Shown here one piece after another: positions 15,146 to 54,726 of a DNA stretch of 64,000 nucleotides (positions are counted from its first letter, which is position 1; each line of letters opens with the position of its first letter). A program made the position numbers and the translations under genes. Under the pieces are notes generated by a model. It did no database searches, had not been told where the DNA came from, and saw only the letters and a program-made list of their open reading frames with translations. This DNA is from a virus. The DNA is taken from IMG/VR virus record IMGVR_UViG_3300005529_000001, positions 208,882 through 272,881 of that record; one strand, given 5' to 3'.

Positions 15146-15178
15146 GGGCTACACTGTAACCCTATCTGTGCCGAGAGT

Positions 15179-16276: not shown

Positions 16277-16281
16277 GGGAC

Positions 16282-19307: not shown

Positions 19308-19338
19308 GATCTAAATAGGCGGTCCGGATGGTCTTGCC

Positions 19339-19554: not shown

Positions 19555-20168
19555 TCCACGGGCCAGATGATTCCCGGTTTCTCTTCCATCGTCGAGATGT
19601 AGTCAGCAGTCTGAACACCGTAGACAAGGGGCCTGATCTTCAGACAATATTTTTTGTTTTCTTCGGGCTTGAACCCGTCGTTGAGCTTGATGGCCAGGAA
19701 CTCATCAACAGTCAGTTGGATGCCGTAGTGCTGCATCAGGAACAACGAGCGATCGGGAGTCGAGAAGTAAGGGAGCTCATCGTTGTACTTGTACTCTTCA
19801 CCCAGCTTTTCAGCGCGCCAAGCGTCTGTCTGCGGGATGTAGAAATCGTTCTCACTGCCCTTTCCCGGCATGCCAACCTTGCCGATGTCATGGAAGAGCG
19901 CCGCGATGATCATCGCTTCTTTGTTCAGTTTCCAGCCGTACCCGTTATTGAGAACAACGAGGTTGTTGAGCACCCGGAGGCTGTGATCGACCAGCCCACC
20001 CGGGAATGCTCCGTGATAATCGACCTTTGCCGAAGCTGGAGCTAGGCACAATCGTTCGTCGAGATCATCGAGCATCTCGGACAACGCTTGCCCACGGGTT
20101 GGGCATTTGTCACACAACCCACGAAACTTTTTCCAGTTCTGCTCGATCTCTTCAGGTGTCAACGACAT
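19551..20168 (-). CDS. HD-domain phosphohydrolase
   Basis: HSLRV ... LFHDIGK (H...HD) motifs. Confidence 0.75.
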   Translation of the reverse strand: MSLTPEEIEQNWKKFRGLCDKCPTRGQALSEMLDDLDERLCLAPASAKVDYHGAFPGGLVDHSLRVLNNLVVLNNGYGWKLNKEAMIIAALFHDIGKVGMPGKGSENDFYIPQTDAWRAEKLGEEYKYNDELPYFSTPDRSLFLMQHYGIQLTVDEFLAIKLNDGFKPEENKKYCLKIRPLVYGVQTADYISTMEEKPGIIWPVE

Positions 20169-20200
20169 GCTGTAATCTTACAAGCACAATCTTAGCTTGT

Positions 20201-35697: not shown

Positions 35698-38600
35698 TCA
35701 CCCCTGTTGCGAGATGTTGTTCGTCACAACGAAGTCCAACGAGACGTACTCGAGCGACTTGGTGGGCTGGACGAAGATCTTCCCGCGGATGGTGTTGTTC
35801 TCGATGTCGAGCTGCGTCGTTGTCGAGGAGTCGATGACGACCTTGAAACGCTGCAGGCCAGCCTGGGCCTGGATCTTCTGCAAGACGGGGGTGACCGCCG
35901 CAGAGAACCGAGCCAGGGTTGCGTCACGGTTCTGCTCGAACAGGATGGTGTTGGCAATGTCACGGACCTGGCGACGGATCTCGATCAGGAGGCGCCGCAC
36001 GTTGACACGGTCAAGGGCCGAAGCAGCTTGCTGGAGCGTCTTCTGTCCCCAGACCACCACGCCACCCTTCGGGTTGGTGCCGCCCGAAGCGTTGCCCGGG
36101 AAGGCGACCAACGGGTTGACGTTGGCGTCGTAAAGGGCGTCCATGTTGGTCTTCGACAGCTTGACACGAGCCTCGAGGGTCGTCTGCAACGCACCACGAG
36201 TGAAGCCTGCGGGAGCGAACCATGGGTGACCGACCGCGTCGTTGAGAGCGAGAGCGCCCAGGACGGCGACAGACGGGGGAGCAACGACGTTGTTGCCCGT
36301 GTTCGGATCGGGCATCACGACGTCTGGGAAGTACGCTGCACCGAAGCTGCTGTTCACTGACCGCAGCAGGAAGTTCTGCAGCGTGTATGTCACGCTGGGC
36401 AGCTGCGTGTCGGTGGTGACCAGCTGGTCGTTGTTATCATACTGGTCGATGTCCATCAAGAACATGCAATCAAAGCGCTGTTCACAAGCCGCCAATGCTG
36501 CGTCAGTGACGACCGGGTGCCTGATGCCGGGAACGGCGAGCAACATGATGTCCACGTTCGTGGTGTCGCTCATGATGTTGAGGCCAGCGTTGTAAGCTGA
36601 CACTGTCGATCCGAGGTTGAAACCACGGTTCGATGCATTCATGTCATCTTCAACGGCGGTGTTCGTCAGCTGGCGCTGGTCGGGATCAAACAGGTTGGTC
36701 CCATCGAAACCTCCCTGGACCATGAACGTCCACTTGAGGAAGCGCCTGTTGGCCTGGACGAAGTCGCTCGGCAACAGCGCACGGGTTGCAGCGGAGTTGT
36801 TCGTTGCAATGTTCCCGTTGCGGACATAGACTGCGTTCACCCACTGTGTCGGGTCGGCGATGCCAGCCGAGCTGGTGACGACCTGGATGTTCAGCAAGCT
36901 GAAGGCGTTGAAGTTGAACCTGTCGGCGTCCATGATGGCGCCGTTGACGGTGGGTGCTCCGGGCTTGCCACCGTTCTCATACCCAATGCGGACGTTCTGC
37001 GCATCGGTGCGGAACTCGGGCAAGAACTTTGCAAAAGCATGCATTGACTGGTTTGCCAGCGTGCTCAAGTTCGGGGTTGACACACTAGCAACGTGCTCAA
37101 ACTGCATGCCCCAGTACAGCAAGGGGTTGACCTGCAGCTTGGCGCCAGAGCCCTGCGTGATGTTCTGCCGCAGCGGGACCGGCGGCTCGATGACTTGGCT
37201 TGCCCAGGTGGTGCTGTTCAGCGCGATCTCGCTAGAGCTACCGCTGATCAACGAGTTTGCAGGCTGTGCCAGGCAACCGCCAGCTGTCACCAAGTGATGG
37301 ATGCCACGAAGACCGACAGGCAACACCGTCGGATCGACCTGGCCGAGGTCAGTTGACGTATCCATCTCGATGCGGATGTAGTTCGAAGCGTTCGGGTACT
37401 GGCCATCAACGACCAGCTTCTGTGCGGTCGGTCCACGGTCAAAGTCAAAGAACGCGTGGGCGTCACCGATGACAGCAGCGATGTACCGTGAGTCGCTTGG
37501 GTTCAGCGTCAGGCCGCGGAACTGCTCGAGGTAGACGGGTGCTCCGTCGGTGTCACCCCACTGGCGGACGACCAGGTCAAAGGTGCCGTACTGGTTCAAC
37601 GGATCGGTCGAGAGCGCGATGTTCTCGATGCTGATCTTGTAAAGCCTGCTAACGTTGAAGCCGTCATCAAGGGCGTGGACGCGGAACAGGTTGTGGGGCT
37701 TGCCGCCGAACGGTTGTGAGACAACCCACGGTGACGTTGCGTGCTCAAACCGGTCACGGAAGTCCTCATAGTCGGGGACGGTCGATGAACCGTTGTCATA
37801 CTGCAACGAGCTGGTCAAGATGAACGCTGCAAACTCAGCGCCCGGAACGTTTGCAGACGCTGCGCCGGCGCCGAACGAGGAGCTGACGAGACCCGATCCG
37901 GTGACCACTGCCTGCGCAGGGTGGATATCATAGTGGCTGTAGAGGTAGTGACCTGCCTGTTGCAGGTTGTCAGGGTTGGTGTTCAGGACGTTCGCAAAGT
38001 AGTTTGGCGACGTCATGTCGAACGACGCGGTGATCACGTTCGGGAACAGTGGGTTCGTTCCCATGAGACCGTTAAGGAAGAGGACGAAGTCTTGCTTGGC
38101 GATCGACCCAGCGAACAACGTCACGTCACCGATGCTTGCACCGTTGTTGTCAGTCGCTACTGCAGTTGCAGGCGGAGCAACGTTGGTCTGCGCTCCCGTG
38201 AGCGGGAACGAAGCTGACAGCGTCAGGATGACGCCTGAGGCGGCCATGATCATGCCGCGGACGATCGGGACACACGAACCGGACGTTGACGTTGTCTGGA
38301 TGCCCGCAGACGAGAAGAACGTTGAGCCGGCCGACTCGGACATGAAAGCGCCCAAGAAGTACGTACGACCCGACAGGTAGCTGGTCCGGCCTGGTTGGAC
38401 GGGAGTTGCTCCCGTCGATGACGTCGGGTTAGCATAAGGGTTTGGGCTCAGCTGACCATTGTTGTTGGGATCAGGTTCCTTTTCGCCGACTGTCCAGCCT
38501 GCGCCTGTCACGCCACCTGTTGCACTGTTGGGACCCGAGGGTTGGCTAGCGAGACCCTGCCGTGCTTGTCCCTGGCCAACGCCGAGCACCCTGACGTAGG

Positions 38601-38844
38601 TCAGCGCTTGCGCGTTGCGGAGCCACTCTGTCACCGCAAGCGGGCCAAACTTCCGGCCATCAGTCTGACCAAACTTTCCATAGAAGTCGTTGACCAGACC
38701 AACAGTGACAGGAACGAATGCTGGGCCCTTCAAAGAAGTGCCAACAACGCCTGCTGGGGTGCCTGTCGGGGTGATCGCTAGCGGTTGAGAGAGATCGATC
38801 TCTGTCGTCGATACTCCTGGCGCGCCGAACTTGAGCTGTGACAT
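35698..38844 (-). CDS. tail sheath protein, copy 1 (1048 aa)
   Basis: N-terminus GVSTTEIDLSQP...GTSLKGPAFVPVTVG sheath-like; paralog of 38954..42142; C-terminus FVQPTKSLEYVSLDFVVTNN. Confidence 0.8.
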   Translation of the reverse strand: MSQLKFGAPGVSTTEIDLSQPLAITPTGTPAGVVGTSLKGPAFVPVTVGLVNDFYGKFGQTDGRKFGPLAVTEWLRNAQALTYVRVLGVGQGQARQGLASQPSGPNSATGGVTGAGWTVGEKEPDPNNNGQLSPNPYANPTSSTGATPVQPGRTSYLSGRTYFLGAFMSESAGSTFFSSAGIQTTSTSGSCVPIVRGMIMAASGVILTLSASFPLTGAQTNVAPPATAVATDNNGASIGDVTLFAGSIAKQDFVLFLNGLMGTNPLFPNVITASFDMTSPNYFANVLNTNPDNLQQAGHYLYSHYDIHPAQAVVTGSGLVSSSFGAGAASANVPGAEFAAFILTSSLQYDNGSSTVPDYEDFRDRFEHATSPWVVSQPFGGKPHNLFRVHALDDGFNVSRLYKISIENIALSTDPLNQYGTFDLVVRQWGDTDGAPVYLEQFRGLTLNPSDSRYIAAVIGDAHAFFDFDRGPTAQKLVVDGQYPNASNYIRIEMDTSTDLGQVDPTVLPVGLRGIHHLVTAGGCLAQPANSLISGSSSEIALNSTTWASQVIEPPVPLRQNITQGSGAKLQVNPLLYWGMQFEHVASVSTPNLSTLANQSMHAFAKFLPEFRTDAQNVRIGYENGGKPGAPTVNGAIMDADRFNFNAFSLLNIQVVTSSAGIADPTQWVNAVYVRNGNIATNNSAATRALLPSDFVQANRRFLKWTFMVQGGFDGTNLFDPDQRQLTNTAVEDDMNASNRGFNLGSTVSAYNAGLNIMSDTTNVDIMLLAVPGIRHPVVTDAALAACEQRFDCMFLMDIDQYDNNDQLVTTDTQLPSVTYTLQNFLLRSVNSSFGAAYFPDVVMPDPNTGNNVVAPPSVAVLGALALNDAVGHPWFAPAGFTRGALQTTLEARVKLSKTNMDALYDANVNPLVAFPGNASGGTNPKGGVVVWGQKTLQQAASALDRVNVRRLLIEIRRQVRDIANTILFEQNRDATLARFSAAVTPVLQKIQAQAGLQRFKVVIDSSTTTQLDIENNTIRGKIFVQPTKSLEYVSLDFVVTNNISQQG

Positions 38845-38953: not shown

Positions 38954-41900
38954 TCACACGAACTGGACGCCGCTGTTCGTGATGATGAAGTCAACTGCGA
39001 TGAACTCAACCACGCGGGTCGGGACCACGACGATCCGACCGTTCATCTTGTACTGGTCAACGTCAGCTTGCGAGTTGTTGGTCGAGTTGCAGATGACCTG
39101 GAAGGCTTCGATGCCTGCCTGGGTCTGGATCAGTCCCAGTTGCAACACTGCCTGTGCAGTGAACTTGTTCTGGGTGTCGGGCGTGTTCTGCTCGAACTCC
39201 AGTTGCAGAGCGATGTTGCTGATGATGCGCTTGACCTCCAGCAACAGACGCCTAACGTTGACCCGGTCAAGAGCCGAGGGCTTGGCTTGCAGTGTCTTCT
39301 GGCCGAAGATGACGAATCCCTGTCGTGGGAACGTTGCGATCGGGTTGATGCGGCTAGAGTACAGCGTGTCCCGGTCGCTCGAGTTGAGACGCACGCCCAC
39401 GTTGACAACGAAGTCGAGCGCTGCGCGGTTGAAGCCCGCAGGAGCGAACCATGGGTAACCGATCTTGTCGTTGAAGCCCAGGGCTCCCAACGCTGCGATC
39501 GAAGCGGGCACCTTGACACGACGGTTGTTGACCACGTCCTGGATGAAGACATCCGGGAAGTAGGTTCCCATGTAGTTGTTGTCGATAGCACGGGTGTTGA
39601 GACCGACGCTGGTCTGACCCACGTCTGCACGGACCGCGCTACCGTTTGCCCCGATGGTGGTCGAGTACAATCTGTTCTGTAGCTCGTCATAGTTTACCAG
39701 GTCCATGACGTAGAAGGCCAAGCCGTAGTCACGGACATGGCTTCCCGCGTAATCCGTCAGGAAGGGCTCTCGGATGCCCGGCATCGCCAGGATGTTGTGG
39801 TTGACCTGCATCGGGTCAGTCATGATGGTGAGGGCCGTGACGTACGAGGAGACGTTGGAGTTGCTCTGGCCCGTTCCGTTCATGTTGGCAGCAAACCCAG
39901 GCGGGATGAAGCCCGGGAACGCACCGCCAGTATCACCCAACAGGTTCGAATCGAACGACGTTGACTTGTCGTTCATGCGGCTAGCGTCAGGATCCAAGAA
40001 GTTGACACCGTCCCAGCCGCCGGCCAAGAAGGTCGAGAACTTCAGGTAAGGAGCAAAGCGGTTGAACTGCTGTGCTGTTCCCTTGGCGAGCAAGGTTGCC
40101 AGGGTGACACGCCGGCTTGCCGTCTTCTGGTTGTTGAGCTCGACCGGATCGATGTAAACGTACGTCGCGCCATCCAGCACGCCGTTTCTGATGTAAGCTG
40201 CTTCACGCATGTGACCGTCGATCGACGCCGTCAAGCCGCTGAGGCTCGTCCCATCAAAGACGTCGGTGAAGTCGTTCGAAAGAGCAACCTTGGCCAGCGT
40301 GAACTTGTTGTCACAGAACTGGTCTGCGCCTGCCCCGGTGACGAACGTGTCCAAGCCAGAGCAACCCAGGAACTGGGTGTAAGAGCTGATGCAGTTGTTT
40401 GCCACCGTCTCAACGTTCGGGTTGAGTGGGATGTCGAGACGCTCGAACTGGACGCCCCAGTACAACGGCGGGTAAGAGATCTCGGTGGGAGCGGGGTTGC
40501 CGAACCAGGACGTTGACGTCGGGCGGTTTCCCTTGGTCACCTTGGTGCGGAACGGAACTGGGGGCAAGACCGAACCAGTCAACGCGTTTGCGCTGCCCGA
40601 GGTCACGCCATACAGACGAGTGAAAGCTGCCTGGAGAGCGTTGCTTGCACCTGCCGACAGGACGCCGTTTGACGCACCATCAGTCAAGCTATCGTTGGTC
40701 TTCAACAGTGCCGCGCCGCGGAAACCGAAGGGCAAGCACTGCGGCGGCACTCGAGCCTGGTCAACTGCGTCAGTTGGGATGACGCGGATGTAAGCAGACT
40801 GGTTCTGGTACTTGCCACGTGACACGACACGTTGCTCGGTGCTGATCGTTGCATCAAAGTTGTAGTAGACCTTGCGATCGCCGATCACGTTAGCGATGTA
40901 GTTTGCAGCCGTCGGGTCAAGGCTCAGGTTGTTGAACTGCTCCAGGACGTTCGGGTTGATGTCGGTGTCATCCCAGCTGCGGACCTGCAACGCAAAGGTT
41001 CCGTACTTGTAGCTGTCAACGGTCGATGCTTGCAGGTTGACGATGCTGATCTTGAAGAGGTTGTTGGCGTACTGGCCGTCATCGAGCGCTTCGACACGGA
41101 ACAGGTCGTACTCCACCTTGCCAAAGGGCTGGCTGATGAACTTCGTCGTCGTTGGGGTCTGGTAACGGGCGTCAAACGCTCCGTACGAGGCCCGGTACGT
41201 CGTGTTGTCGTTATAGGGGGCACCCGTGAACGAGAGGTCCGCGTTGTTCTGGCTGCTGTTTGTCGAGCCGATCAGGACACCCGCGATGTTTGCCGTAGCG
41301 ATCTGATCATCAACGGCGAAATCAGCGTAAAGAACGTGTTGCGATGCAACGAGGCTGTCCGGGTTGCTGTTCAGCAGCTTGGCAAAGTAGTTCTTGTCAT
41401 CGGGATCGAAAGATGCAGTCAGGATCTTGCAACCCGGGTTGCCATCATCGTTTGCAAACGAAGTGCCCAACGTTGAGCTGATGATCAGCTTGAAGAAGCC
41501 GCTTGGGCTGGTTGGCGATGTCCCCTGCATGACACCGAAGTCCTGCAGTGAGTCGATCTTGCCTTTGACCGAGAAGTCGTTGTTTCCGTCTGCGACGCAC
41601 AGGCGAGCGCCCGAGGCCATCAGGACCATGCCCCTGATCAGGTGCGCGGTGCCACCCGAGAAGCTGTCGTTGTCGGTGAAGATCGCGGGACCCAGGATCT
41701 CGTTGCCCTGGACCAGGTGTTGGGCGACCAAGAACTGCACTGCGCCCGTGAAACGGCTGCCTGAGACGTCAGAGATTGAGACTGCTGTCCCGTTCAGGTG
41801 GAACCCGGCGTTGACAGTGCGACCCGTTGCCGTGGTTCGTGAGATGTCAGTGCCCGTTGCATTGGCACCCGCGCCCAAGACCCTAAGGTAAGTCAGGGCT

Positions 41901-42142
41901 TGGCGGTTTGCCAAGAAGTAGTAGGCGGCGTAAGGGCCGAAGCGGTTGGGGTCCAGGGTGCCGAAGACGGCATTGAACTGGTCGAAGTTGCCGACAGTGA
42001 CAGGCACGAAGGCCGGGCCACGGTTCGACGTCCCGATCACACCGGCGGGGACTCCGACCGGCCCCTGTGGGGCGGGAGCGGAGAGATCGATCTCTCGCTG
42101 GTAGAAATTGGGGGACAGAAAAGTCTGCAGCTGCTGCGGCAT
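38954..42142 (-). CDS. tail sheath protein, copy 2 (1062 aa)
   Basis: N-terminus REIDLSAPAPQGPVGVPAGVIGTSNRGPAFVPVTVG; C-terminus RIVVVPTRVVEFIAVDFIITNSG; SD AGGAG. Confidence 0.8.
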   Translation of the reverse strand: MPQQLQTFLSPNFYQREIDLSAPAPQGPVGVPAGVIGTSNRGPAFVPVTVGNFDQFNAVFGTLDPNRFGPYAAYYFLANRQALTYLRVLGAGANATGTDISRTTATGRTVNAGFHLNGTAVSISDVSGSRFTGAVQFLVAQHLVQGNEILGPAIFTDNDSFSGGTAHLIRGMVLMASGARLCVADGNNDFSVKGKIDSLQDFGVMQGTSPTSPSGFFKLIISSTLGTSFANDDGNPGCKILTASFDPDDKNYFAKLLNSNPDSLVASQHVLYADFAVDDQIATANIAGVLIGSTNSSQNNADLSFTGAPYNDNTTYRASYGAFDARYQTPTTTKFISQPFGKVEYDLFRVEALDDGQYANNLFKISIVNLQASTVDSYKYGTFALQVRSWDDTDINPNVLEQFNNLSLDPTAANYIANVIGDRKVYYNFDATISTEQRVVSRGKYQNQSAYIRVIPTDAVDQARVPPQCLPFGFRGAALLKTNDSLTDGASNGVLSAGASNALQAAFTRLYGVTSGSANALTGSVLPPVPFRTKVTKGNRPTSTSWFGNPAPTEISYPPLYWGVQFERLDIPLNPNVETVANNCISSYTQFLGCSGLDTFVTGAGADQFCDNKFTLAKVALSNDFTDVFDGTSLSGLTASIDGHMREAAYIRNGVLDGATYVYIDPVELNNQKTASRRVTLATLLAKGTAQQFNRFAPYLKFSTFLAGGWDGVNFLDPDASRMNDKSTSFDSNLLGDTGGAFPGFIPPGFAANMNGTGQSNSNVSSYVTALTIMTDPMQVNHNILAMPGIREPFLTDYAGSHVRDYGLAFYVMDLVNYDELQNRLYSTTIGANGSAVRADVGQTSVGLNTRAIDNNYMGTYFPDVFIQDVVNNRRVKVPASIAALGALGFNDKIGYPWFAPAGFNRAALDFVVNVGVRLNSSDRDTLYSSRINPIATFPRQGFVIFGQKTLQAKPSALDRVNVRRLLLEVKRIISNIALQLEFEQNTPDTQNKFTAQAVLQLGLIQTQAGIEAFQVICNSTNNSQADVDQYKMNGRIVVVPTRVVEFIAVDFIITNSGVQFV

Positions 42143-43645: not shown

Positions 43646-44328
43646 CAGCTATTCTCCGGGTCTTCATCATCATAGAATGCGCTGTCACCTGAAAACTCTC
43701 CGCCCTTCTTTGACACTTCCTTGGCACCCGTGATGGGCTTGTCAAGGACATCGGGCGTCTGCAAGTCTCGAACGTCACCAGTGACGCCTTCCTTGTTGTG
43801 AGCTTGCCCTCGTTGTTGGTAAAACTCTCTCTGTACCGCGTCTTTGTCAGGACGGCTGACGTCTGTCGGGCCGATCGTGAGAGCCTTGAATTGCGTTTCA
43901 CGGGCCTTGGTTCCGATCAACTTGACACCGTCCTTGTGTTCGGGCATGCCGTAGATGTTTCGCATGAACAGCTTCTCAGTGACTTCGTAAAAAACATCTG
44001 AGAAAGAAAAGAAGTCTCCGATGGATGGGCTGATCCCCTTGTCAACCAGGTCACGCCACTGGATGTATACCTCAACCTTGAACTGAGCGTCTACGCCAAA
44101 AGCGGTGATCTTGGTGTCAGCTTGGAAGTGAGTGTCTACCAAGCAATCCAACGCAATAGGAGCGTCAAAGACCTTTTGTACTGCTTCGTTGTAGACAGTG
44201 TCAGTCTTCGTCTTGTCTTCGTTGATGGCATAGTAGTAGACTTTCTGGCCCACCACGTCCTTGATGAGTTCCTTCGTGATGTCCGAGATGAAGTTGAACT
44301 CACGTTGTGTCAGGTACAAGCGTCCCAT
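43645..44328 (-). CDS. hypothetical structural-module protein (227 aa)
   Basis: ORF, ATGA-coupled. Confidence 0.5.
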   Translation of the reverse strand: MGRLYLTQREFNFISDITKELIKDVVGQKVYYYAINEDKTKTDTVYNEAVQKVFDAPIALDCLVDTHFQADTKITAFGVDAQFKVEVYIQWRDLVDKGISPSIGDFFSFSDVFYEVTEKLFMRNIYGMPEHKDGVKLIGTKARETQFKALTIGPTDVSRPDKDAVQREFYQQRGQAHNKEGVTGDVRDLQTPDVLDKPITGAKEVSKKGGEFSGDSAFYDDEDPENS

Positions 44329-44336
44329 GTGTCACC

Positions 44337-45569
44337 TCATCCAAAGATGATCGCCTTGCCACCCGGGACAGCGGTGTACTTGAGCATCTTCTGCATCTGT
44401 TCACCGATGTTTGCTTGTGACTCAAGGAGCTTCTCATACGTCAGCTTTTCAAGGAACTCTTTCAAGTTCGTCATCAGCTTCTCTTTGTCCTCACGGCCCT
44501 GGGTGATCAGCGCTTCACCGTTAAGCTGGAGGTCTGCGTTCGGGATCGGGATGACCTGGAACTTGCTGCGGTTGATGCCCAACAGCTCACGGCACAACGC
44601 CAGTGCATACTGCCGGATCCATTGCCTTCCAGGCGTGGTGATGGTGCTGTAGGGCAGGATGCTGAAGGGAACGTTCTCGGGACCGCTGACGCCGTATGCG
44701 CTAGCGTCCTCAAAGTCAGGTTGCATCACTGACTTGGGGGTGAAGACCCTGACATAGAGGTTGCCCATGCCAAACGGGCCCAACCCATCGCTACCAAAGG
44801 ATTGGGGCTGTGGGAAGATCCGGATCTTGGTGCCGATGACCTGGTAGCTGTAGTTGCTGCGCCTGACGCGGAACGCTTCCTTCAACATGCCACGACGGAC
44901 GACGTCCTCAAAGACGGGCAACACGTAGAACACAGTGCTGTTGACATATGACTCGTAGTTGAAGTTCGTGGCAAGAAAGTTGGTGATGTTTGAAGCGTTC
45001 AGCAAGAAAGTCTGCGCTGCTAACGGTTCGAAATGGAAGACTTCCATCACGCGCAGCTTTCCCTTCAAGCCAGCAGGAAGGTTATCAACGACCAGTCCCA
45101 TGTCAGGGCTTGTCATGCCGACAGTTGTCGGATCGTAGTTGATGGTCTGGTGCAGTTCCGTGTAGATGTCGTAGTCTTGCTTGCCGGGAATCAGGTTGAA
45201 GAATCCCAACGTGTAGTTGTAGTTTCCACCCACGTATGAAGCTTGCGCATAAGCATCAGCCAACCTGAACAAGAAGTCGAGGTTCTGCTGCAGGTACCTG
45301 TTGGTCAGGTCCGTTGACCCAGTGGGCTGACCGAGAACGTTCGCCAGTTGGCTAACGATCTTCAGTTCTTGGATCAGGCGGCCATACTCAAGGCACGATT
45401 GCTCGAGACACGACCAGATTTCCTTCTTGGTCAGCTCGACGCTGAGGACATCATCTCCCAACATCCGCTTAGCAAACGTGACCATCGCATCAGCTTCAAC
45501 CTGGAAAGCTGCATCTGTGTCAAAGAAGCCAAACGGGGTGGGGTTGACGGTCTGGTTAAAGTTCGGCAC
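44337..45569 (-). CDS. hypothetical structural-module protein (410 aa)
   Basis: ORF; GTG start. Confidence 0.5.
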   Translation of the reverse strand: MPNFNQTVNPTPFGFFDTDAAFQVEADAMVTFAKRMLGDDVLSVELTKKEIWSCLEQSCLEYGRLIQELKIVSQLANVLGQPTGSTDLTNRYLQQNLDFLFRLADAYAQASYVGGNYNYTLGFFNLIPGKQDYDIYTELHQTINYDPTTVGMTSPDMGLVVDNLPAGLKGKLRVMEVFHFEPLAAQTFLLNASNITNFLATNFNYESYVNSTVFYVLPVFEDVVRRGMLKEAFRVRRSNYSYQVIGTKIRIFPQPQSFGSDGLGPFGMGNLYVRVFTPKSVMQPDFEDASAYGVSGPENVPFSILPYSTITTPGRQWIRQYALALCRELLGINRSKFQVIPIPNADLQLNGEALITQGREDKEKLMTNLKEFLEKLTYEKLLESQANIGEQMQKMLKYTAVPGGKAIIFG

Positions 45570-45646
45570 GAGCTTAACTATGGCGCTGTGAGAGCCCCGA
45601 TCTAGGCTCTAAGCTCCCCAGCGATCACCAGAACGGATAACCGAGA

Positions 45647-46189
45647 CTAGCCCACGAACCGGAACACGTCAAATGTCCCGTAGTTAAGCTGGAAGTTCGC
45701 GCCCGCGTTGTTGCATTTGACCCTGAGATCATGGATAACAGGAACATCGCTGGGACCGTGAAAATCGAGATCGGAAATGGTCACTGAGTCAGGGAAGGGC
45801 TGACCGTTTGCGATCGTCGTTTGGAGCGTGTTTCCTTGTTGCCCGTTGAGAAACAACGCAAAAGTGTAAATTCCCGCCGACCCAGAAAAGCTCAGGGCAA
45901 TGCTGTGAAAATACGTTCCCGGCAAGCTTGCGGTGATGCCGTTGTTGGCCGCAACACACCCTGGTGAGTTTAAAGAAGACGTCAACCACTGCGTCACTTG
46001 GGTCCAAGTGTTGGGAGCTCCCAAGTTCTGCCCGCTCTGGCCGTTGTTTTGAGTCGTCAGCTCGGCAAACGCGCCCACGGAAGAGGTGATCTGTCCGGCG
46101 GACGTCAACGTTCCCACGCTGACAGAACCTGCCACAGTAAGGTTTGAGCTTCCATCATCAACCAAACCCTGTGAGTTTATGTACGCCAT
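45647..46189 (-). CDS. small beta-rich virion protein (180 aa); paralog of 58275..58736
   Basis: N-terminus MAYINSQGLVDDGSSNLTVAGSVSVG vs MATIDSRGFVDDGSGNLSVAGQVTVVG. Confidence 0.5.
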   Translation of the reverse strand: MAYINSQGLVDDGSSNLTVAGSVSVGTLTSAGQITSSVGAFAELTTQNNGQSGQNLGAPNTWTQVTQWLTSSLNSPGCVAANNGITASLPGTYFHSIALSFSGSAGIYTFALFLNGQQGNTLQTTIANGQPFPDSVTISDLDFHGPSDVPVIHDLRVKCNNAGANFQLNYGTFDVFRFVG

Positions 46190-46213
46190 GGCATTTCCGA
46201 CATTAAATATGTC

Positions 46214-46729
46214 ATGGCCACGTCGTTAGTCTTCACCACTTCATCTCACTGGCTATCACGAGTCATCAGGATGGTGACAGAGAGCGAAGTCTCACATGTG
46301 GCGATAGGAACAGAGATCTTTGGCGAACCAGTCCTGATCCATTCTGCACTCGACGGTGACACGGGACGCAGCGGCGTCCAGATCACGCCCAGGAACAAGT
46401 GGCTCAGAGACAACTACGTTGTTGCTGAGTACGACATCGTCCCAGACGTCTCAGAGAACATGGGTTCCCTGATCAAGCTCCTCTGTGAACGTTATGACAA
46501 AATGGGCCTTGTGGGTCACTTGATCGTGATTGCTGCCAAGTACTTGGGCAAGAAGATCATGAACCCGTTGTCACGACCAAACTACTGGGTCTGTTCACGA
46601 TACGTGCTGAAGCTCGACCCATCGGGCCAGACCATCCCAGAGTGGGCTGGGTTGGACCCAGAAAAAACCACTCCGCATGACCTGTTGATGCTGTGTCGGA
46701 CAGGCGCTAGTTTTCGTGAACTGACCTAG
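46214..46729 (+). CDS. permuted papain-fold (YiiX/C92-like, His-then-Cys) hydrolase candidate
   Basis: Only plus-strand gene in the window; SHVAIG ... WVCSRYV order suggests a circularly permuted NlpC/P60-like fold (tentative). Confidence 0.5.
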   Translation: MATSLVFTTSSHWLSRVIRMVTESEVSHVAIGTEIFGEPVLIHSALDGDTGRSGVQITPRNKWLRDNYVVAEYDIVPDVSENMGSLIKLLCERYDKMGLVGHLIVIAAKYLGKKIMNPLSRPNYWVCSRYVLKLDPSGQTIPEWAGLDPEKTTPHDLLMLCRTGASFRELT

Positions 46730-46736
46730 GATTGGG

Positions 46737-47492
46737 TCACGGAGCGCCAATTCCATACAGCGACAGGAAGTAAGCGCTCATCTGGGACACCTCGGCCGCG
46801 TTCAGGGGCCGGTTGAAGGCGCCCTGTTCAGCGATGTTGCCGTTGAAGAAGTTGCTGCTGTTGGTGTTGAGGCCGATGTTGACGCCAGCAGACGTTGCGA
46901 CCTGGTTCGTGGTCGGGCTAGCCAGCGCCTGGGGTTGGCCGTTGACCCACAGCCTGGTCGTCGTCCCATCGTTGGTCGCGATCCACGCCTCCCAGTTGGT
47001 GGTGTTGGTGCCGTCAGTGTGGTCGATCACGCCGATGGCCGACACGTCGCGGCTGGTGCCGTTGTTGGCGAGGGCGATGCCGTTGGTCGCTGCACCGCCG
47101 AAGCTGATGACGGCTTGGTTTGTTATCGATGCGAACTGGTGGATTGAGAAGATCGTCCAGTTCGTCGACGTGATGACCTGCGCAGAGTTCGTGAGACACT
47201 GCGTGTTGGCTGCCAGCAGGGTGAGGCAGGGCTTCCTGAGGTTGGGGTCGGGGGCGACCCACACCGGCCGCTTGCTGGCCGTCGCCTGGCTGACGCCGTT
47301 GCCGTTGCCCGACAGGTCGCCCCACGACGTGACCAGGCCGCTGGCATCGAAGTTGAGGCCCTGGTCTGCCCTGAGCCACAGCACGCAACCCCCGAGCTGG
47401 GTTGGCTGGAACAGCATCTGTCTCCCGACGACTGGCATCTTCAGCTCCACGCTCCTGGGTTGTACTTCGATGACAGGTACTGGAAGACCCAC
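46737..47492 (-). CDS. LamG/jellyroll-like fiber protein, paralog 1
   Basis: Shared core C.LWLRADQGV...W.D.SGNGN ... Y..S.Y with the next three genes. Confidence 0.55.
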   Translation of the reverse strand: MGLPVPVIEVQPRSVELKMPVVGRQMLFQPTQLGGCVLWLRADQGLNFDASGLVTSWGDLSGNGNGVSQATASKRPVWVAPDPNLRKPCLTLLAANTQCLTNSAQVITSTNWTIFSIHQFASITNQAVISFGGAATNGIALANNGTSRDVSAIGVIDHTDGTNTTNWEAWIATNDGTTTRLWVNGQPQALASPTTNQVATSAGVNIGLNTNSSNFFNGNIAEQGAFNRPLNAAEVSQMSAYFLSLYGIGAP

Positions 47493-48190
47493 GACACCTG
47501 TTGGGGCGTGTGTGCGCCCTGGTAGATGATCACCTCGGCGATCGACCCAGATGTGAAGTTGATCCCGGCAAAGCCGAACAGCTCGGCCTGGACAAGGGAA
47601 TTGGCGCCAGCCGCAAAGGCTGACAGGCCCACGACGGCGGCTTGGCTGGTTCCCGGTTGGCTGGTCCCCAGGTAGACGTTCGAGTTGCTGCCGTTGAAGA
47701 CGCCCGCTGCACAGAAGGGCTGCCCTACCGTCAGGACGTTGTTGGTCGAGTTCTTGACCGACCCAGCGAATGCCCCGATGCCCGTTGTCGGGCCCGACCC
47801 GATGACAGCGTACAGCGTCTGCCGGGTGCCCGGGCTGTCGAACAGCGTCAGGTTGATGTTGGGGTTGAACGTGCTGATGTAGCTGACCACGTACGCTGTG
47901 TTCGGCTGCGGGACGTTGAGCGAGGTGTTGGTCAGTATCTGGGCCGAGCTGCTGACGAAGGTGATGCTGGGTTGGCCGTTCAGCAGCGGGTCGGTCGCTA
48001 TCAGGCTGGGCCTCGTGGTTACAGCTCCCGTCGAGGTGAAGTGGTTTCCTGCTCCCGAGGAGTCAGCCCACGTGACGACGTTGCTGCCCGACAGCTGGAC
48101 GCCGCGGTCTGCAGACAGCCACAGCACGCAGCCATTCATCTGCGTCGGGACGAAGCCCACTCCCCTCAGTCCAAACGGCATCAGAAGCAC
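47441..48190 (-). CDS. LamG/jellyroll-like fiber protein, paralog 2
   Basis: GCVLWLSADRGVQLSGSNVVTWADSSGAGNHF ... QYLSSKYNPGAWS. Confidence 0.55.
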   Translation of the reverse strand: MLLMPFGLRGVGFVPTQMNGCVLWLSADRGVQLSGSNVVTWADSSGAGNHFTSTGAVTTRPSLIATDPLLNGQPSITFVSSSAQILTNTSLNVPQPNTAYVVSYISTFNPNINLTLFDSPGTRQTLYAVIGSGPTTGIGAFAGSVKNSTNNVLTVGQPFCAAGVFNGSNSNVYLGTSQPGTSQAAVVGLSAFAAGANSLVQAELFGFAGINFTSGSIAEVIIYQGAHTPQQVSWVFQYLSSKYNPGAWS

Positions 48191-48966
48191 CTGTAGCGGC
48201 TACGGACGTACTGCCTCAGCAGGTCCTGGTTGGTCTTTGAAGCAACGTTGAAGGCACCGATCTCGTAGATCTTGCCCGGGAAGGCGCGGTTGCTGACAGC
48301 GCCGATGAGGCCCACGTAGAGGGTGTTGGTCTGCGTTGCGCTGGTGTACGTGGAGATCGACTGCTGGAAGATGGTCTGTCCGTTCATCGATATCGTCAGC
48401 ACCCCGCCGTCCCACACTGACTCGATCATGTACGTCGAGTTGTTGACCATCGTCGCTGTGGGGATGTTCTGTGCCTGCAGCAGGCCCGGGTAGAGGAATG
48501 ACCACGTCCCCTGGCCGCTGATGACGTTGATGCCCAGGCCGACGCCGTCGCCCGTGTTGGGACCCGTCCATGCGCTTGTCGAGTTCTTGTCGAAGATCGG
48601 ACCGTGGATGGTGTGGGTGCCCGGCCACGTCGCTGGGGTGCCGATGACAGCCCACAGGTGGATGGGGCCCGTCCCAGTGTTCCAGCCCGCCGGGTTGGCA
48701 ACGTTGAAGGCGCCGATGATGGCATCGGTGGTGTCGCACAGCATCTGGTGACTGGGCTGCGGCGAGTCGCTGGGCAGCCACAGCGGGTTGGTGCTGCCAC
48801 CGATGTTGAGGCCGAGGAGGTGGTTGCCATACGGAGACATGTCTGCCCACCGCACCACCGAGGTGTTGGAGTTGGCAGTGACGCCCATGTCGGCACGGCA
48901 CCACAAGATGCAAGCGTTGCCTGGCACCGACGGGTTCCAGTTGGGGGCGCGGCCGATGACTGTCAC
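48181..48966 (-). CDS. LamG/jellyroll-like fiber protein, paralog 3
   Basis: ACILWCRADMGVTANSNTSVVRWADMSPYGNH ... QYVRSRYRCF. Confidence 0.55.
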   Translation of the reverse strand: MTVIGRAPNWNPSVPGNACILWCRADMGVTANSNTSVVRWADMSPYGNHLLGLNIGGSTNPLWLPSDSPQPSHQMLCDTTDAIIGAFNVANPAGWNTGTGPIHLWAVIGTPATWPGTHTIHGPIFDKNSTSAWTGPNTGDGVGLGINVISGQGTWSFLYPGLLQAQNIPTATMVNNSTYMIESVWDGGVLTISMNGQTIFQQSISTYTSATQTNTLYVGLIGAVSNRAFPGKIYEIGAFNVASKTNQDLLRQYVRSRYRCF

Positions 48967-50405
48967 GACCAGTTCCCCGGGTTGTAGCGGCTCGCCAGGT
49001 ACTGGAAGAGCCAGGAGAGCTCGACCTGCGACAGCGGCCTGTTGAAGAACATGATCTCAGCGATCTTTCCATTGAGGGTGATGGTGCCTGTTCCCGTGCC
49101 TCCCAGCGACTCGACGCCCGACGGGCTCGTTGCGCCCGCGGAACCCGCCCCGACTGAACCGCTGCTGTTGTTGATGTAGAGGGCTGAGCTGGCGACGTTG
49201 AAGACCGCTGCCATGCACAGGCTACGGCCGTTGGCGTTTGCGTAGGGTCCCAAGGCGCTGACGTTGCTGCCGGCGAACATCGCCCAAGTGGCGCCAGTCC
49301 AGTAGGGCCCAGTGACGTTGTTGACCGAGTCGCCAAAGAATTGCTGCTGTGTCGCTCCGCTGGTTGACTCACCGACGACAACGCAGGTCATCGGTTGCGA
49401 CGGCATGATTTTCTGCAGCGCCAGCGATTGGGTGCTGGCTTTGGTGAACTGGACGGTGGGCTGGCCGTTGTAGCCCGGGTCGCTCGGGACCAGGACGGGC
49501 CTGTTGGCCAGGGTGCCCTGGCTGGCGTTGTTGCCGTTGCCGCTGATGTCCGACCACGATTGGACGTTGCCTGCGTTGTCGAGCGAGACACCTTGGTCAG
49601 CACGCCACCAGCCGACCAGCCCATTCATCTGCGTCGGTTGGAAGCCCACACCTCGTGATCCACCCCCCACATTGTAGCGGGTCATCAGGTAACGGGTGAC
49701 CAGGGCAGCTTGGGCATCGCTGAGCACGTTGGTATAAGAAATGGCCTCGAACATGTCGCCTGCAAAGAACAACGAACCCCCGTTACGGCTGCCGATGACA
49801 GTGCCTCCGTTGCCGTTGTTGGGCGGGAAGTTATTGTAGGGAGCTTGGTGCTGTTGGCCGTTGACCAGCAGGTTCCATGTTCCACCTGGTGTTTCGGTGA
49901 CTTGCCAGATCTCGGTATTGGTGCTGATGTCGTCGAAGATGGGAAAGCTGCTGACGCTGGCGATGTTGACATTGCGCTTGCCACCCGTGATCGGATTGAA
50001 ACCGATCTCGAGGCCGCCTGACCCGCCCGATGGGTTGTCACGGGTCGACAGGAAGAAAGAGAAGTTTCCAGGCGTTAGCGTCGAGTACCTGATAGCGAAG
50101 AAGTAGGTGCAGTTGGTGGTCGTCAGGTTGACTGATGATGTTAGGTTTTGTGTAGATCCATTGAATGACAGTTTGGGGATGTTGGGTAACCCGTTGACGC
50201 CGCTTGAACCGGTGTACTGCGGTGGTGACAGGGCATTTGATGGGGTGAAGATCGATCCGTTGGGCGACTGGTCGACCCACTGGGAGACGAAGCTGCCGCT
50301 GAGGGTCACGCCCAGGTCAGAGCGCAACCACAGCTGGCAGCCCGCGATGCTAAGCGGGTTGAAAGCAGCGGCCGAGAACCTCAGACCTGTTCCGGGACCG
50401 GGCAC
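48963..50405 (-). CDS. double LamG/jellyroll-like fiber protein (two repeats of the paralog domain)
   Basis: Two internal copies: CQLWLRSDLGV...SQWVDQSPNG and GWWRADQGVSLDNAGNVQSWSDISGNGNN; ends QYLASRYNPGNWS. Confidence 0.55.
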   Translation of the reverse strand: MPGPGTGLRFSAAAFNPLSIAGCQLWLRSDLGVTLSGSFVSQWVDQSPNGSIFTPSNALSPPQYTGSSGVNGLPNIPKLSFNGSTQNLTSSVNLTTTNCTYFFAIRYSTLTPGNFSFFLSTRDNPSGGSGGLEIGFNPITGGKRNVNIASVSSFPIFDDISTNTEIWQVTETPGGTWNLLVNGQQHQAPYNNFPPNNGNGGTVIGSRNGGSLFFAGDMFEAISYTNVLSDAQAALVTRYLMTRYNVGGGSRGVGFQPTQMNGLVGWWRADQGVSLDNAGNVQSWSDISGNGNNASQGTLANRPVLVPSDPGYNGQPTVQFTKASTQSLALQKIMPSQPMTCVVVGESTSGATQQQFFGDSVNNVTGPYWTGATWAMFAGSNVSALGPYANANGRSLCMAAVFNVASSALYINNSSGSVGAGSAGATSPSGVESLGGTGTGTITLNGKIAEIMFFNRPLSQVELSWLFQYLASRYNPGNWS

Positions 50406-50414
50406 TGGGTCACC

Positions 50415-51410
50415 TCACTTCCACATGAACGCGGAGTCGAATGGAGCCGTCGCTGCGACGCCATAGTTGGCTGCCGCGGTGTAAGTGCCCGGGGTCGATG
50501 AGAAGCTGGCGGCAATGCCCGTCGAGAAGAACGCTCCCCAGGGAGCAAAGTCGACGATGGGTTCTGAAGCGCAGGTCTGAGTGCCCGATACGCTGGTCGG
50601 CACCACGATCCACGAGAACAGCGGGACAGCGCCTGCTGCTGGTGTCGTCGTGCTGTTGAAGAGTTGCAGGTAGACGCTGCCGCTGCTGCGGTTGGTCGCC
50701 CAAACCCTGTACATGACGCCGGGAGAGCCCTTGATCACTGTCGGGGTGCCACCGCCCGGCATGATGTTGAGGCTGCCCGAGAACGTCGGCGTGTAGATCG
50801 ATGCGGTGGTGGGCAGCAACGCAGTTGCAAAGACACCGTTGAAGTTGTCCTCAGCAACGGGAGCAAACTGCTCTCTCATCGCCACGTTACCCTGGAAGTC
50901 TGACTTGAGGGGAGTGATCTGACCGTTAGAAGCCGAGAGAGAGCCGGTCAGAGACACCGACCAACCGATGGTGTCCTGGATGTTTGCGGGCGCCGTGAGC
51001 GGAGCCAGCGGGCTCGGGAGCCCGGTATAGAGGTTGGTGACACCCACAGAACCAGTGACGAACACCGGGATCGCTGCAGACGAAGAGACACCCACCGGGC
51101 CAGTCGAGAACACCGGGAGCTGGACAGACGCGCTCACTCCAACGTTGCCCTCAGACCAGATCTGGATCGGAACACCGCCCACGACACCCTGCACGGGAAG
51201 GGTCGCCGATGCGGTGACACCCAAAGGATTGGACGTGGTGACCAGCATCGCGCCGCCGCTCGATGACAGGTACTCGACAAGGCCCGTGCGAGCGTTGTAA
51301 GCAGCTTGCAGCTGGCCGATCGCCCCAGTGGGCAAAGCCATGCTGCCTGAAACGCCAACGACGTTTCCGTTGATGTCGAACAATATTGTCGTCGGGTTGT
51401 TGATGATCAT
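50415..51410 (-). CDS. tail fiber-like protein with short internal repeats
   Basis: Repeats LPVQGVVGGVPIQI / LPVFSTGPVGVSSS / IPVFVTGSVGV. Confidence 0.5.
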   Translation of the reverse strand: MIINNPTTILFDINGNVVGVSGSMALPTGAIGQLQAAYNARTGLVEYLSSSGGAMLVTTSNPLGVTASATLPVQGVVGGVPIQIWSEGNVGVSASVQLPVFSTGPVGVSSSAAIPVFVTGSVGVTNLYTGLPSPLAPLTAPANIQDTIGWSVSLTGSLSASNGQITPLKSDFQGNVAMREQFAPVAEDNFNGVFATALLPTTASIYTPTFSGSLNIMPGGGTPTVIKGSPGVMYRVWATNRSSGSVYLQLFNSTTTPAAGAVPLFSWIVVPTSVSGTQTCASEPIVDFAPWGAFFSTGIAASFSSTPGTYTAAANYGVAATAPFDSAFMWK

Positions 51411-52258
51411 GGCGTCGTCCTTGTCCTCGACGTCTCAAAGACGCCGTTGTAGACAAAACTATCTGTGAATGAATCAGCCACGGTCACCCCGTCAGACTGG
51501 TAGACTGTCCAGCTGCTGGAGATTATAAGCTGCTTCGAATTCCGTGTGACTATGTTTGTTAGGAACTTCTTGGCCCGCGTGGAGTCTGTCCACCAGATGC
51601 TCGCCGTCGGGAAAGGCCAGGGTCCCGTGTCACGGACAGCGCCCGACGTCCAGAGCTGGCCCCTGGGCCCGTCCTCGTTGGCTAGGTGAACGAGCTGCAG
51701 CAACAGTTCATGTTGCGTGGGAGTCATCGATCCCGTTGGAACGCTGAGAGCGACGCTGATCGTGGTGCCCGGGCCGTTGTCGGTAACGGTGATGCCGTTG
51801 GTCCCCGACAGCACCCGGAAGTTCGGGTTTTCGGCGTCGGGTTGTGCGAGGACGTATGACGCAAACTTGTCGTCTCCCGCGCTGGAGCTGATGGTCACTT
51901 GGCCTGACGAGTTTGTCGAGACCAGGATGCCACCTATGCCTATGAACGCAGCGAGCGGGATCGACGAGCCCTTGGGAGTGAACTGTGTCAACGATCCCGA
52001 GAGGGCCGCGGCAGAGATCGTTCCCGAGGCTGTGATGAACGACATGTCATAGATGCCGTGGCCGCCCCAGTCGATGTCTGAAGTGATCGTGAGTGAACCG
52101 CTGCTCATGTTCAGCGGAGCGCCCTTGCCCGGGCTGTGATCGTGAGCATCGACAACCGCCAGGGCACCCGTCAGCAGCGGGCCCCAGGCCGAGCCGGCGT
52201 TACCGCCTGGGGTCACCCCCACGACGGGGAGCGACATCGACATAAAGGGGGTGGACAT
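51407..52258 (-). CDS. hypothetical fiber/baseplate-module protein (283 aa)
   Basis: ORF; CCTATTTAG motif 7 nt upstream of the ATG. Confidence 0.5.
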   Translation of the reverse strand: MSTPFMSMSLPVVGVTPGGNAGSAWGPLLTGALAVVDAHDHSPGKGAPLNMSSGSLTITSDIDWGGHGIYDMSFITASGTISAAALSGSLTQFTPKGSSIPLAAFIGIGGILVSTNSSGQVTISSSAGDDKFASYVLAQPDAENPNFRVLSGTNGITVTDNGPGTTISVALSVPTGSMTPTQHELLLQLVHLANEDGPRGQLWTSGAVRDTGPWPFPTASIWWTDSTRAKKFLTNIVTRNSKQLIISSSWTVYQSDGVTVADSFTDSFVYNGVFETSRTRTTP

Positions 52259-52315
52259 CGTGTGGCTAAATAGGCGGCTGGAGATCGATGAACCACCCTC
52301 AGCGGTTCTCTCTCA

Positions 52316-52585
52316 TCACCGCGCCAACAACGTGCCGATCAGCTTCTTCAGCTCACGAACGGACATTGACACCATGCGCTCGTCACGGCCATCATCAACG
52401 ATGGGGCCCTTCAGTGTCGTCGGGTCATCGTCTGTGATGAGTTGCTGGCCCTGGCGATCGGGATCGTCATCTGACGCGCCTGCCACTTTCATCATCCCGC
52501 TCCTCGCAGCGGGCGGCTGGAATGCACCGCCAGAAAACCTATCAGCTTCCGCTGTCAGGGCTCTCTGGGTTTTTCTGGTGGCCAT
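52316..52585 (-). CDS. hypothetical protein (89 aa)
   Basis: ORF. Confidence 0.4.
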   Translation of the reverse strand: MATRKTQRALTAEADRFSGGAFQPPAARSGMMKVAGASDDDPDRQGQQLITDDDPTTLKGPIVDDGRDERMVSMSVRELKKLIGTLLAR

Positions 52586-52862
52586 CTAGCACCTCCGAGA
52601 TGGGCTGGGGGACCCGCTCTCGGCAGTAACTAGGCACGTGGCCCTTGACGATGCTCAGGATGTCTCGAGAAGAGACGAGGGTGCACCGTCCGGTGATCTC
52701 GGCGATCCTTCGCTTTGGGATGTCATAGTGAGGAAACGCTGACGAAGCGTGGAACCAGCAGCGCTTGATGCCCAGGTCACGAGCCATCTCGTGAAGGTTC
52801 TCTACCGAATACGGAAGACAGACCAGGTGCCTGGCGTTGTCGCAGACGTACCTGAGGTCCAT
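52542..52862 (-). CDS. hypothetical protein (106 aa)
   Basis: ORF. Confidence 0.4.
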   Translation of the reverse strand: MDLRYVCDNARHLVCLPYSVENLHEMARDLGIKRCWFHASSAFPHYDIPKRRIAEITGRCTLVSSRDILSIVKGHVPSYCRERVPQPISEVLDGHQKNPESPDSGS

Positions 52863-54117: not shown

Positions 54118-54726
54118 TCAGCTCGTCTTGCGCATCAGCAGCACGGGCTCTCCCGTGATGGGTTGGGCCTTCTGCCACTCTGGGTGCTCAGCCAGCCATT
54201 CATCGATGGCAGGCTTGACGCCGTGCTTGTCAGTGTCCACGGGCTTGGTCGCGTGAGCGTTGCCCTCGTAGCCCTCGCGTTGGGCATACCAGAGGTCACG
54301 GTCGCTCCACCTGCCATCATAGTCGTCACAGATGACGATGCCATTGGGCTTGATCAGCTTGCCCACGAGCTCCATCTCTTGCTTGACGGTATGATAGTTG
54401 TGATCGCCATCGAGCAACAAGACATCGAACTGCAGGCCTTGTTCAACCATGACGGGCAACACTTCGAGAGAGTTCTTCTCAAGCAAGTAAGCGTTCTGGC
54501 TCGGCTGGCGGTCGATGTTCTGCAACATCAGTTGCACCTGTTCCTGGACCAGGATGTCAACGCCGATAGCGGTGAAAGCGGGGCGGGTACGGGCCAAGAA
54601 GACGACCAACGACAGGAACGTCACGCCCCTGTCAACGCCGATCTCCAAGAGAGCGGGTGACACGCTGGGGGCGACCTGCTGGTGCAAGTACTGTTTGACG
54701 AGCGGGATGTAGCCATGGTATGACAT
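54118..54726 (-). CDS. class I SAM-dependent methyltransferase (O-MT-like)
   Basis: Motif I LEIGVDRGVTF; LLLDGDHNYH acidic motif. Confidence 0.65.
   Translation of the reverse strand: MSYHGYIPLVKQYLHQQVAPSVSPALLEIGVDRGVTFLSLVVFLARTRPAFTAIGVDILVQEQVQLMLQNIDRQPSQNAYLLEKNSLEVLPVMVEQGLQFDVLLLDGDHNYHTVKQEMELVGKLIKPNGIVICDDYDGRWSDRDLWYAQREGYEGNAHATKPVDTDKHGVKPAIDEWLAEHPEWQKAQPITGEPVLLMRKTS

Follow-up and report, generated by a model that had tools for sequence, protein, structure and literature searches.

Five ancient LamG-type jellyroll modules in a coupled tandem gene array of an uncultured T4-like myophage

The window analysed here comprises 64,000 nucleotides (nt) of IMG/VR virus record IMGVR_UViG_3300005529_000001 (positions 208,882 to 272,881) and comes from contig ERZ27279688:k141_1055159, the 369,506-bp metagenomic contig of a gp23-type, T4-like myophage. 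Between its capsid and neck genes lies a tandem array of four paralogous genes, which encode five copies of a LamG module predicted to fold as a concanavalin-like jellyroll. By sequence comparison, the five modules are ancient paralogs, each kept as a distinct subtype. We suggest that the products may be lectin-like adhesin subunits displayed on the virion. The genes of the array and two genes directly upstream of it are all located on the minus strand and are named here, along the direction of transcription, N283 > N331 > D > C > B > A. Lengths are in amino acids (aa), and ORF denotes an open reading frame.

51407..52258, minus strand: N283, 283 aa, first of the six coupled genes (ORF and junction)
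50415..51410, minus strand: N331, 331 aa, directly preceding D, coupled to the array
48963..50405, minus strand: gene D, 480 aa, two LamG modules (ORF and gene caller)
49665..50405, minus strand: domain D_N, first LamG module of gene D, about residues 1-247 (alignment, BLASTP)
48963..49664, minus strand: domain D_C, second LamG module of gene D, about residues 248-480 (alignment, BLASTP)
48181..48966, minus strand: gene C, 261 aa (= P0002), the most divergent LamG paralog, GTG start
47441..48181, minus strand: gene B, 246 aa, LamG paralog (gene caller agrees on 246 aa)
46737..47438, minus strand: gene A, 233 aa, LamG paralog, ATG start at 47438

An independent gene caller applied to the source contig returned the same four array genes (480, 261, 246 and 233 aa). 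Gene D starts with a GTG after GAGGTG-N5, 9 nt past the stop of the 331-aa gene upstream, and its product contains two full-length matches to the hidden Markov model (HMM) of the family (3.8e-71 and 9.8e-69). The GTG start of C overlaps the stop of D in the sequence GTGA (4-nt overlap), and C and B share the junction TGATG (1-nt overlap). For B, the most likely start is the ATG at 48181 (AGGTG-N6-ATG) and not the GTG at 48190. Gene A starts at 47438 (GGAG-N6-ATG), 2 nt past the stop of B; the gene caller and the database protein P0001 (233 aa) agree with this start. A 251-aa form of A beginning at 47492 was rejected as a longest-ORF artefact, produced by extension to the first in-frame GTG. 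The overlap of about 50 nt that the earlier note on this DNA reported for the first two genes is likewise an artefact, the B/A junction being a 2-nt spacer. Further upstream, the stop of N283 overlaps the ATG start of N331 (ATGA). Judged by these junctions, the genes from N283 to A form a six-gene translationally coupled block. Scans for consensus promoters and terminators gave results no better than those of shuffled sequences.

The description of the locus as four tandem paralogous genes with five domain copies is borne out by the ORFs, BLASTP and MAFFT, which all agree. For comparison, the 480-aa D protein was cut at residue ~247, giving five units of ~235 aa. The units are mutually related (BLASTP E ~1e-5 to 5e-35), with D_C the closest paralog of both B (4.9e-35, 34% identity) and A (2.2e-24, 31% identity). 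The other matches are A/B (2.9e-17), A/D_N (7.8e-14), B/D_N (1.3e-10), A/C (2.2e-8) and C/D_N (3.6e-5). None of seven neighbouring proteins matched any of the units in BLASTP, and a scan of the 64-kb window with the family profile revealed no LamG copies beyond the five. The five-way MAFFT alignment has 17 invariant columns, including GC-LWLRAD-G, W-D-S-G-G and a C-terminal Y....Y. The G+C content at third codon positions (GC3) of A-D is 0.77-0.87, similar to that of the major capsid gene (0.83) and the sheath (0.77). A 393-aa ORF in an alternative frame has a GC3 of 0.51, a first-position value (GC1) of 0.76 and a composition rich in R, P, S and A; GC3, GC1 and composition mark it as an off-frame artefact, as had been supposed.

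Membership of the Laminin_G_3 family (PF13385) is detected directly for two of the four proteins. At a Pfam gathering threshold of 27.6 bits, A (34.9 bits) and D (30.9 bits, E 3.4e-7) score above the threshold and C (22.4 bits, E 1.5e-4) and B (13.3 bits) under it; BLASTP links B and C to A and D (E 1e-6 to 5e-35). PHROG 10356, 'virion structural protein', matches A (2e-20), B (2.1e-8) and D (7.8e-21), with no match for C. The match spans only positions ~375-625 of the 852 of the profile; the part shared with A, B and D is the LamG module of larger proteins. For A, an AlphaFold2 model computed from a 16-sequence alignment has a mean pLDDT of 79.8 and a pTM of 0.81 and is all-β with one C-terminal helix. 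The predicted fold is a two-sheet, curved β-sandwich, in keeping with the concanavalin-like jellyroll that the earlier note had expected.

The best structural matches of the fold search are without exception non-catalytic binding domains, and the modelled modules resemble binding rather than catalytic members of the ConA-like superfamily. We infer carbohydrate binding solely from these nearest structural neighbours being binding domains. A reading as GH16-type glucanases was rejected, as the catalytic ExDxxE / ExDxE motif is absent from A-D. The PDB sequence search with family profiles gave marginal matches (PilC, E 0.02; an arabinanase, E 0.055). No transmembrane or hydrophobic segment and no signal peptide was found in A-D. 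The products are single globular jellyrolls of 24-28 kDa or, for D, a 50-kDa two-domain version. They contain no shaft, coiled coil or recognisable anchor domain, just a leader of ~15 residues, and have no tail-fibre match in Pfam or PHROG. Because the proteins are compact jellyrolls that lack any fibre architecture, their designation as fibre genes is not justified; A-D are at most accessory subunits of an appendage. The subtype motif HxIHGPxFDKN, located at residues ~118-128 of C, occurs in all C-type proteins (P0002, P0003, P0004, P0006 and P0007) and in none of A, B and D; a site for a metal or ligand, peculiar to the C subtype, is one possibility.

The family itself is abundant. A word-indexed protein search had returned just 19 relatives, because its sensitivity is limited, and the resulting impression of a rare family was overturned by an exhaustive profile search: the HMMER scan of 1.84 billion representatives gave at least 100,000 matches at E <= 1e-3 and, among the matches listed, 47,981 at 1e-10 and 4,942 at 1e-30. 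The top matches, again among those listed, are proteins of 1,000-6,700 aa with 5-21 whole module copies. The motifs of the conserved core that had been described for the array (G-C-x-LWLRAD-GV, W-D-SGNGN and QYL-SRY) are present, but they are not specific to it; as at least 100,000 clusters carry the core, it is a generic, family-wide Laminin_G_3 signature. At large, Laminin_G_3 modules form repeats inside giant secreted proteins, whereas here they are mostly separate genes of ~235 aa and carry a short conserved N-terminal leader, MPxxGxRG.... The viral structure database BFVD holds 413 viral proteins with the same fold at E <= 1e-3; many are stand-alone phage proteins of 230-270 aa, and a few carry the name 'minor tail protein' or 'tail fiber protein'.

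The array is old. Identity between its paralogs is 23-34%, no DNA repeat above ~30 nt is common to them, and the longest repeat in the region 45500-52400, of 44 nt, is a tandem pair inside N331. Orthologs of three of the genes occur in L066, a 5.5-kb forest-soil contig, with many synonymous differences and identities of 49% (D'), 57% (B') and 59.5% (C'). The order there is X (another LamG gene) > D' > B' > C' > peptide deformylase, with no ortholog of A downstream. Gene C has further orthologs in P0003, P0004 and P0006. The subtypes therefore predate the split of the phages and have been individually maintained, and it is the composition and order of the array that change. The peptide deformylase gene (PF01327; 3072-3563 of the L066 contig) directly follows the array and is an auxiliary metabolic gene in an otherwise structural block. 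Expansion by tandem duplication, as the earlier note had it, holds for the tandem paralogy; a recent, lineage-specific expansion does not, the paralogs being ancient and having orthologs of 49-60% identity.

Sequence variation is distributed differently between paralogs and between orthologs. Between paralogs, the N-terminal ~60 and the C-terminal ~40 columns are the most conserved, and the centre is variable with insertions and deletions. Between orthologs, the centre of the second domain of D is highly variable (15-40%), but the centre of C, which holds HxIHGPxFDKN, is the most conserved part of that protein (70-75%). Variable loops as a source of host-range variation thus describe the differences between paralogs and fail for the centre of C, which is conserved across phages. 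No template/variable repeat pair (~100 nt) of a diversity-generating retroelement (DGR) was found in 45500-52400, and no reverse transcriptase occurs among the annotated neighbours in the window. Recent duplication and a DGR-type mechanism were both rejected because of the low identity and the lack of long shared repeats.

A degenerate-pattern scan of IMG/VR, built from a 6-sequence alignment, gave 60 loci with full-length relatives at 23-30% identity. As had been anticipated, related phages vary in the copy number and order of the array, both in the profile scan of these loci and in L066. Three loci (L012, L035 and L046) contain three LamG genes each, L037 four and L061 two, and the largest array found, in L025/L027, has ten consecutive, mutually related genes of ~225-246 aa. 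In L025 (IMGVR_UViG_3300014720_000033, a 64.5-kb contig) it occupies 7815-14937 and is followed by an unrelated 226-aa gene; the same array is present in L027. Multi-domain fusions are also observed, with ~6 domains in 1,280 aa in L032 and further examples in L005, L006 and L002, so that across the loci the arrays have 2-10 genes and the proteins 2-6 domains.

Where the neighbours of these arrays can be annotated, they are tail genes by sequence. In L035, the order is a tail-fibre-like gene (855 aa), three LamG genes, a long-tail-fibre-distal-like gene (560 aa), a gp14-like head closure gene and a gp15-like sheath stabiliser gene, which gives its LamG genes the same placement relative to the neck genes as in the window. 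L046 has tail-fibre genes ahead of its three LamG genes, and in L069 a pectate-lyase-type tailspike gene is flanked by LamG genes. From such contexts, LamG arrays are widespread in phages and usually located among tail-appendage genes. The L069 locus, in a 60-kb phage-like contig with the order LamG-tailspike-LamG, also contains an IS605 OrfB/TnpB (Cas12f1-like_TNB) gene at 17202-18470 and, among large structural genes, a GIY-YIG/NUMOD3 homing endonuclease.

N331 consists of a repeat-rich N-terminal half (peptide repeats of the type VGVSxSxxxPVF) and a conserved C-terminal β-domain; the 44-nt tandem DNA repeat pair lies at 51039-51130 with a spacing of 48 nt. In a dozen homologs, the N-terminal repeats vary greatly in number and the C-terminal part of ~190 aa is conserved. 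One homolog is encoded at 10001-10975 of L072; L072/L073 is a contig of ~30-38 kb with a P22-type portal. There, the N331 homolog adjoins five genes of ~220-248 aa. Four of these match the LamG profile (7.6e-31 to 4.9e-9), and the neighbourhood also includes a collagen-like tail-fibre gene. The pairing of N331 with LamG genes therefore recurs in an unrelated lineage, and N331 is a candidate partner or scaffold of the LamG proteins. N283 has 35 homologs that share its N-terminal half, none of them named; their contexts are unannotated and show no consistent linkage to LamG genes. A DUF4031 gene, present upstream of the block in the window, is also found near an N283 homolog in L074, which suggests that L074 belongs to a related phage.

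No close cultured relative of the phage is apparent at the sequence level: a near-identity DNA search of 44000-52500 against the INPHARED phages gave no match, and tblastn of D against phages gave nothing at 1e-5. Along transcription, the window has a gp23-type major capsid gene, small genes, the six-gene block, an opposite-strand ORF, a 180-aa gene and a gp13-like neck gene, and then a 227-aa gene, a 476-aa gene, two sheath paralogs and a T4_baseplate-family gene. The annotated features around the block are:

58856-60778, minus strand: major capsid protein, 640 aa (Pfam Gp23, 5.9e-78)
54118-54726, minus strand: Methyltransf_24 protein, 202 aa, between the capsid gene and the LamG block
52542-52862, minus strand: DUF4031 protein, 106 aa, between the capsid gene and the LamG block
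46214-46729, plus strand: opposite-strand ORF, 171 aa (152 aa by the gene caller), the sole plus-strand ORF in the structural block
45647-46189, minus strand: N180, 180-aa gene directly upstream of the gp13-like neck gene
44337..45569, minus strand: gp13-like neck protein, a head-tail adaptor (PHROG 211 'head-tail adaptor Ad2', E 3.9e-9; PF26809 Phage_T4_gp13)
38954-42142 and 35698-38844, minus strand: tail-sheath paralogs, 1,062 and 1,048 aa (sheath PHROGs, Phage_sheath_1C)

The gp13-like gene is located ~1.2 kb downstream of the array, which thus belongs to the late structural region. In T4, gp12 and wac occupy the position just upstream of the neck genes, and N180 has the position of wac. 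By eye, the C-terminal half of N180 (PGTYFHSIALSF...ALFLNG) looks like a jellyroll knob of the C1q/TNF type behind a short Gly/Ser-rich stalk. The opposite-strand ORF is convergent with gene A, their stops being separated by 7 nt. Its SHVAIG ... CSRY motifs resemble, by eye, those of permuted papain-like (NlpC/P60-type) hydrolases; it has no Pfam or NCBIfam match and a weak match to PHROG 1128 (E 0.005). In the capsid protein, the gp23 domain is confined to residues ~361-631, behind an N-terminal extension of ~360 aa without annotation. Among cultured phages, the capsid protein is matched best by Microcystis phage Mel-JY01 (34% identity); partial matches of 38-50% lead to 'uncultured phage' records of 484-595 kb. 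In both sheath paralogs, the match to sheath families is confined to ~200-300 C-terminal residues. Such a tandem pair of giant sheath genes is unusual and might point to a sheath that is heteromeric or decorated. A replication and nucleotide module is found in the left part of the window (10132-21430, minus strand), with the large subunit of a class I ribonucleotide reductase with a TSCPD domain (10132-12642), a DnaB-like helicase (12726-14210), a RecA/UvsX-like protein (16710-17999) and a family-A DNA polymerase (20201-21430, a fragment-sized 409-aa ORF).

Synteny, the annotation of relatives and a fold analogue together suggest that A-D encode lectin-like adhesin subunits displayed on the virion, on an appendage associated with the neck or tail and possibly attached via N331, with each paralog binding a different glycan. 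We consider this reading probable, though not comfortably so. The LamG proteins would be late products that enter the virion as small, globular adhesin subunits and dock on the appendage, possibly through the 331-aa protein, much as gp15 of the cyanopodophage Pan3 is part of a tailspike. Each paralog would present a different loop surface and so bind a different host-surface glycan; acting together, the paralogs would widen or adjust reversible adsorption, and the repertoire would shift as cassettes are gained, lost and reshuffled between phages.

Several observations weigh against the adhesin reading. The virion location and receptor-binding role of A-D are reached indirectly, and the 'structural' labels of relatives are annotation only. 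Pan3 gp15 is a fold-level analogue with no significant sequence similarity (HMM E = 6). In Anabaena myophage A-1(L), the distal carbohydrate-binding module of the neck fibre did not bind the host (PMC10966104), so that a lectin-type protein carried on a virion appendage is not necessarily the main binder of the receptor. The centre of C is conserved between phages and not hypervariable. The baseplate genes are located on the far side of the sheath genes, which places the array nearer the neck than the baseplate and weakens a reading as classical tail-fibre receptor-binding proteins, and no tail-fibre or tailspike gene was recognised beside the array in the window. An N331-family ORF is present in none of the 60 IMG/VR LamG loci, and its pairing with LamG genes was observed in only one other lineage. 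N283, N331 and N180 gave no Pfam, PHROG or NCBIfam match and no tblastn match in cultured phages.

The same setting would suit virion lectins on the neck, collar or whiskers, or decorating the head in the manner of Hoc or fibritin, that serve weak, non-specific adherence to a polysaccharide matrix or the sensing of the environment and not host range. With the capsid gene on one side and the gp13-like gene on the other, the array occupies the place that wac and gp12 have in T4, the baseplate genes lie beyond the sheath, and PHROG files 10356 under 'head and packaging'. The bead-chain neck fibres of A-1(L), with their distal module that does not bind the host (PMC10966104), are a further point of agreement. 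However, relatives have their arrays in the midst of tail-fibre or tailspike genes, Pan3 gp15, as the best structural precedent, belongs to a tailspike, and individually conserved subtypes with distinct loops suggest specific ligands; we regard such neck or head lectins as possible but unlikely. A location outside the virion, with the LamG proteins acting inside the cell or released from it as fibre-assembly chaperones, as glycan-modifying or glycan-degrading enzymes or as host-takeover factors, appears quite improbable. The structural neighbours are all non-catalytic, and the proteins have neither the GH16 ExDxxE motif nor an export signal peptide. Relatives are annotated as structural, the fold analogue is resolved in a virion, and the array is tightly coupled and co-oriented with neck and tail genes.

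The tandem layout, the concentration of between-paralog variation in the middle of the module and the strong variability of the central windows of the second domain of D between orthologs would fit a recently duplicated, fast-diversifying receptor-binding cassette specific to this phage, of an arms-race or DGR-like kind. Paralogs at 23-34% identity with no shared DNA repeat above ~30 nt, orthologs of D, B and C at 49-60% elsewhere (L066), the missing template/variable repeat pair and a C centre that is the most conserved part of its protein have already largely refuted this idea, and we give it hardly any credence. A bolder extension of the adhesin reading is that LamG sets of 2-10 and an N331-type partner are portable multi-lectin appendage cassettes, exchanged between phages as different as the ~370-kb T4-like myophage and the ~30-38-kb phage with a P22-type portal. 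Through the N-terminal leader, interchangeable lectin beads would attach to a common scaffold, each virion would carry several glycan specificities, and host range would change by cassette shuffling and not by point mutation, a bet-hedging that can be likened to the multiple lectins of Streptomyces umbrella toxin particles. We offer this extension only as a tentative and, on present evidence, rather unlikely one.

If A-D are adhesins, the five-module operon marks a phage that is probably able to engage several surface glycans, and LamG arrays would be a convenient genomic marker of adsorption breadth in uncultured huge phages. The comparison with L066 (X-D'-B'-C') indicates that the repertoire changes through gain, loss and reordering of cassettes, and the recurrent combination of an N331-type gene with a LamG array provides a concrete pair for assembly studies. 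As the domain family, its occurrence in phage structural proteins and its arrangement in arrays are already common, the finding refines annotation and opens no new field; the array is a real but fairly ordinary case of a pattern known from many phages.

Among cultured phages, sequence-level family members are found in three, all of them T4-like aquatic myophages in which the modules are annotated as structural, although their identity to the window proteins is too low for tblastn. Flavobacterium phage vB_FspM_immuto (NC_055915) has a major capsid protein closer to that of the window than any other isolate except Microcystis phage Mel-JY01. Its gene order is 'putative tail fiber-like protein' > two 'structural protein' genes of ~225 aa (gp050/gp051) > ... 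> 'tail fiber protein' > sheath. The family HMM matches gp050/gp051 at 2e-6 and 1e-5, p176 of S-PM2, annotated 'virion structural protein', at 3e-13 and gp05/07/08 of S-SKS1 at 1e-16 to 4e-12. In these relatives, the module genes are located among tail-fibre-like genes upstream of the neck or sheath genes, or beside baseplate genes. They differ from the array in extent and architecture: immuto has two genes, compared with four genes and five domains in the window, and the proteins of S-PM2 and S-SKS1, 470-1058 aa long, carry the module as their C-terminal domain, whereas the window genes are stand-alone.

Two further systems resemble the array in fold or in layout. The gene of Pan3 gp15 (270 aa, LamG) directly follows the tailspike gene gp14, and its product is chain q of the solved tailspike (PDB 9vyh); the phage genome is 38 kb and contains one copy, compared with the array described here. 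A gp15 type defined by sequence homology to gp15 together with an adjacent tailspike gene does not take in A-D. The neck fibres of A-1(L) are chains of the small globular proteins gp82/gp81/gp80, encoded in one operon (PMC10966104). The subunits of that fibre are trimers of another family, and we use it as an analogy for a serial assembly of the array products, with no claim of homology; the likeness lies in an appendage made up of several small globular proteins from a single operon near the neck, with a carbohydrate-binding module at its end.

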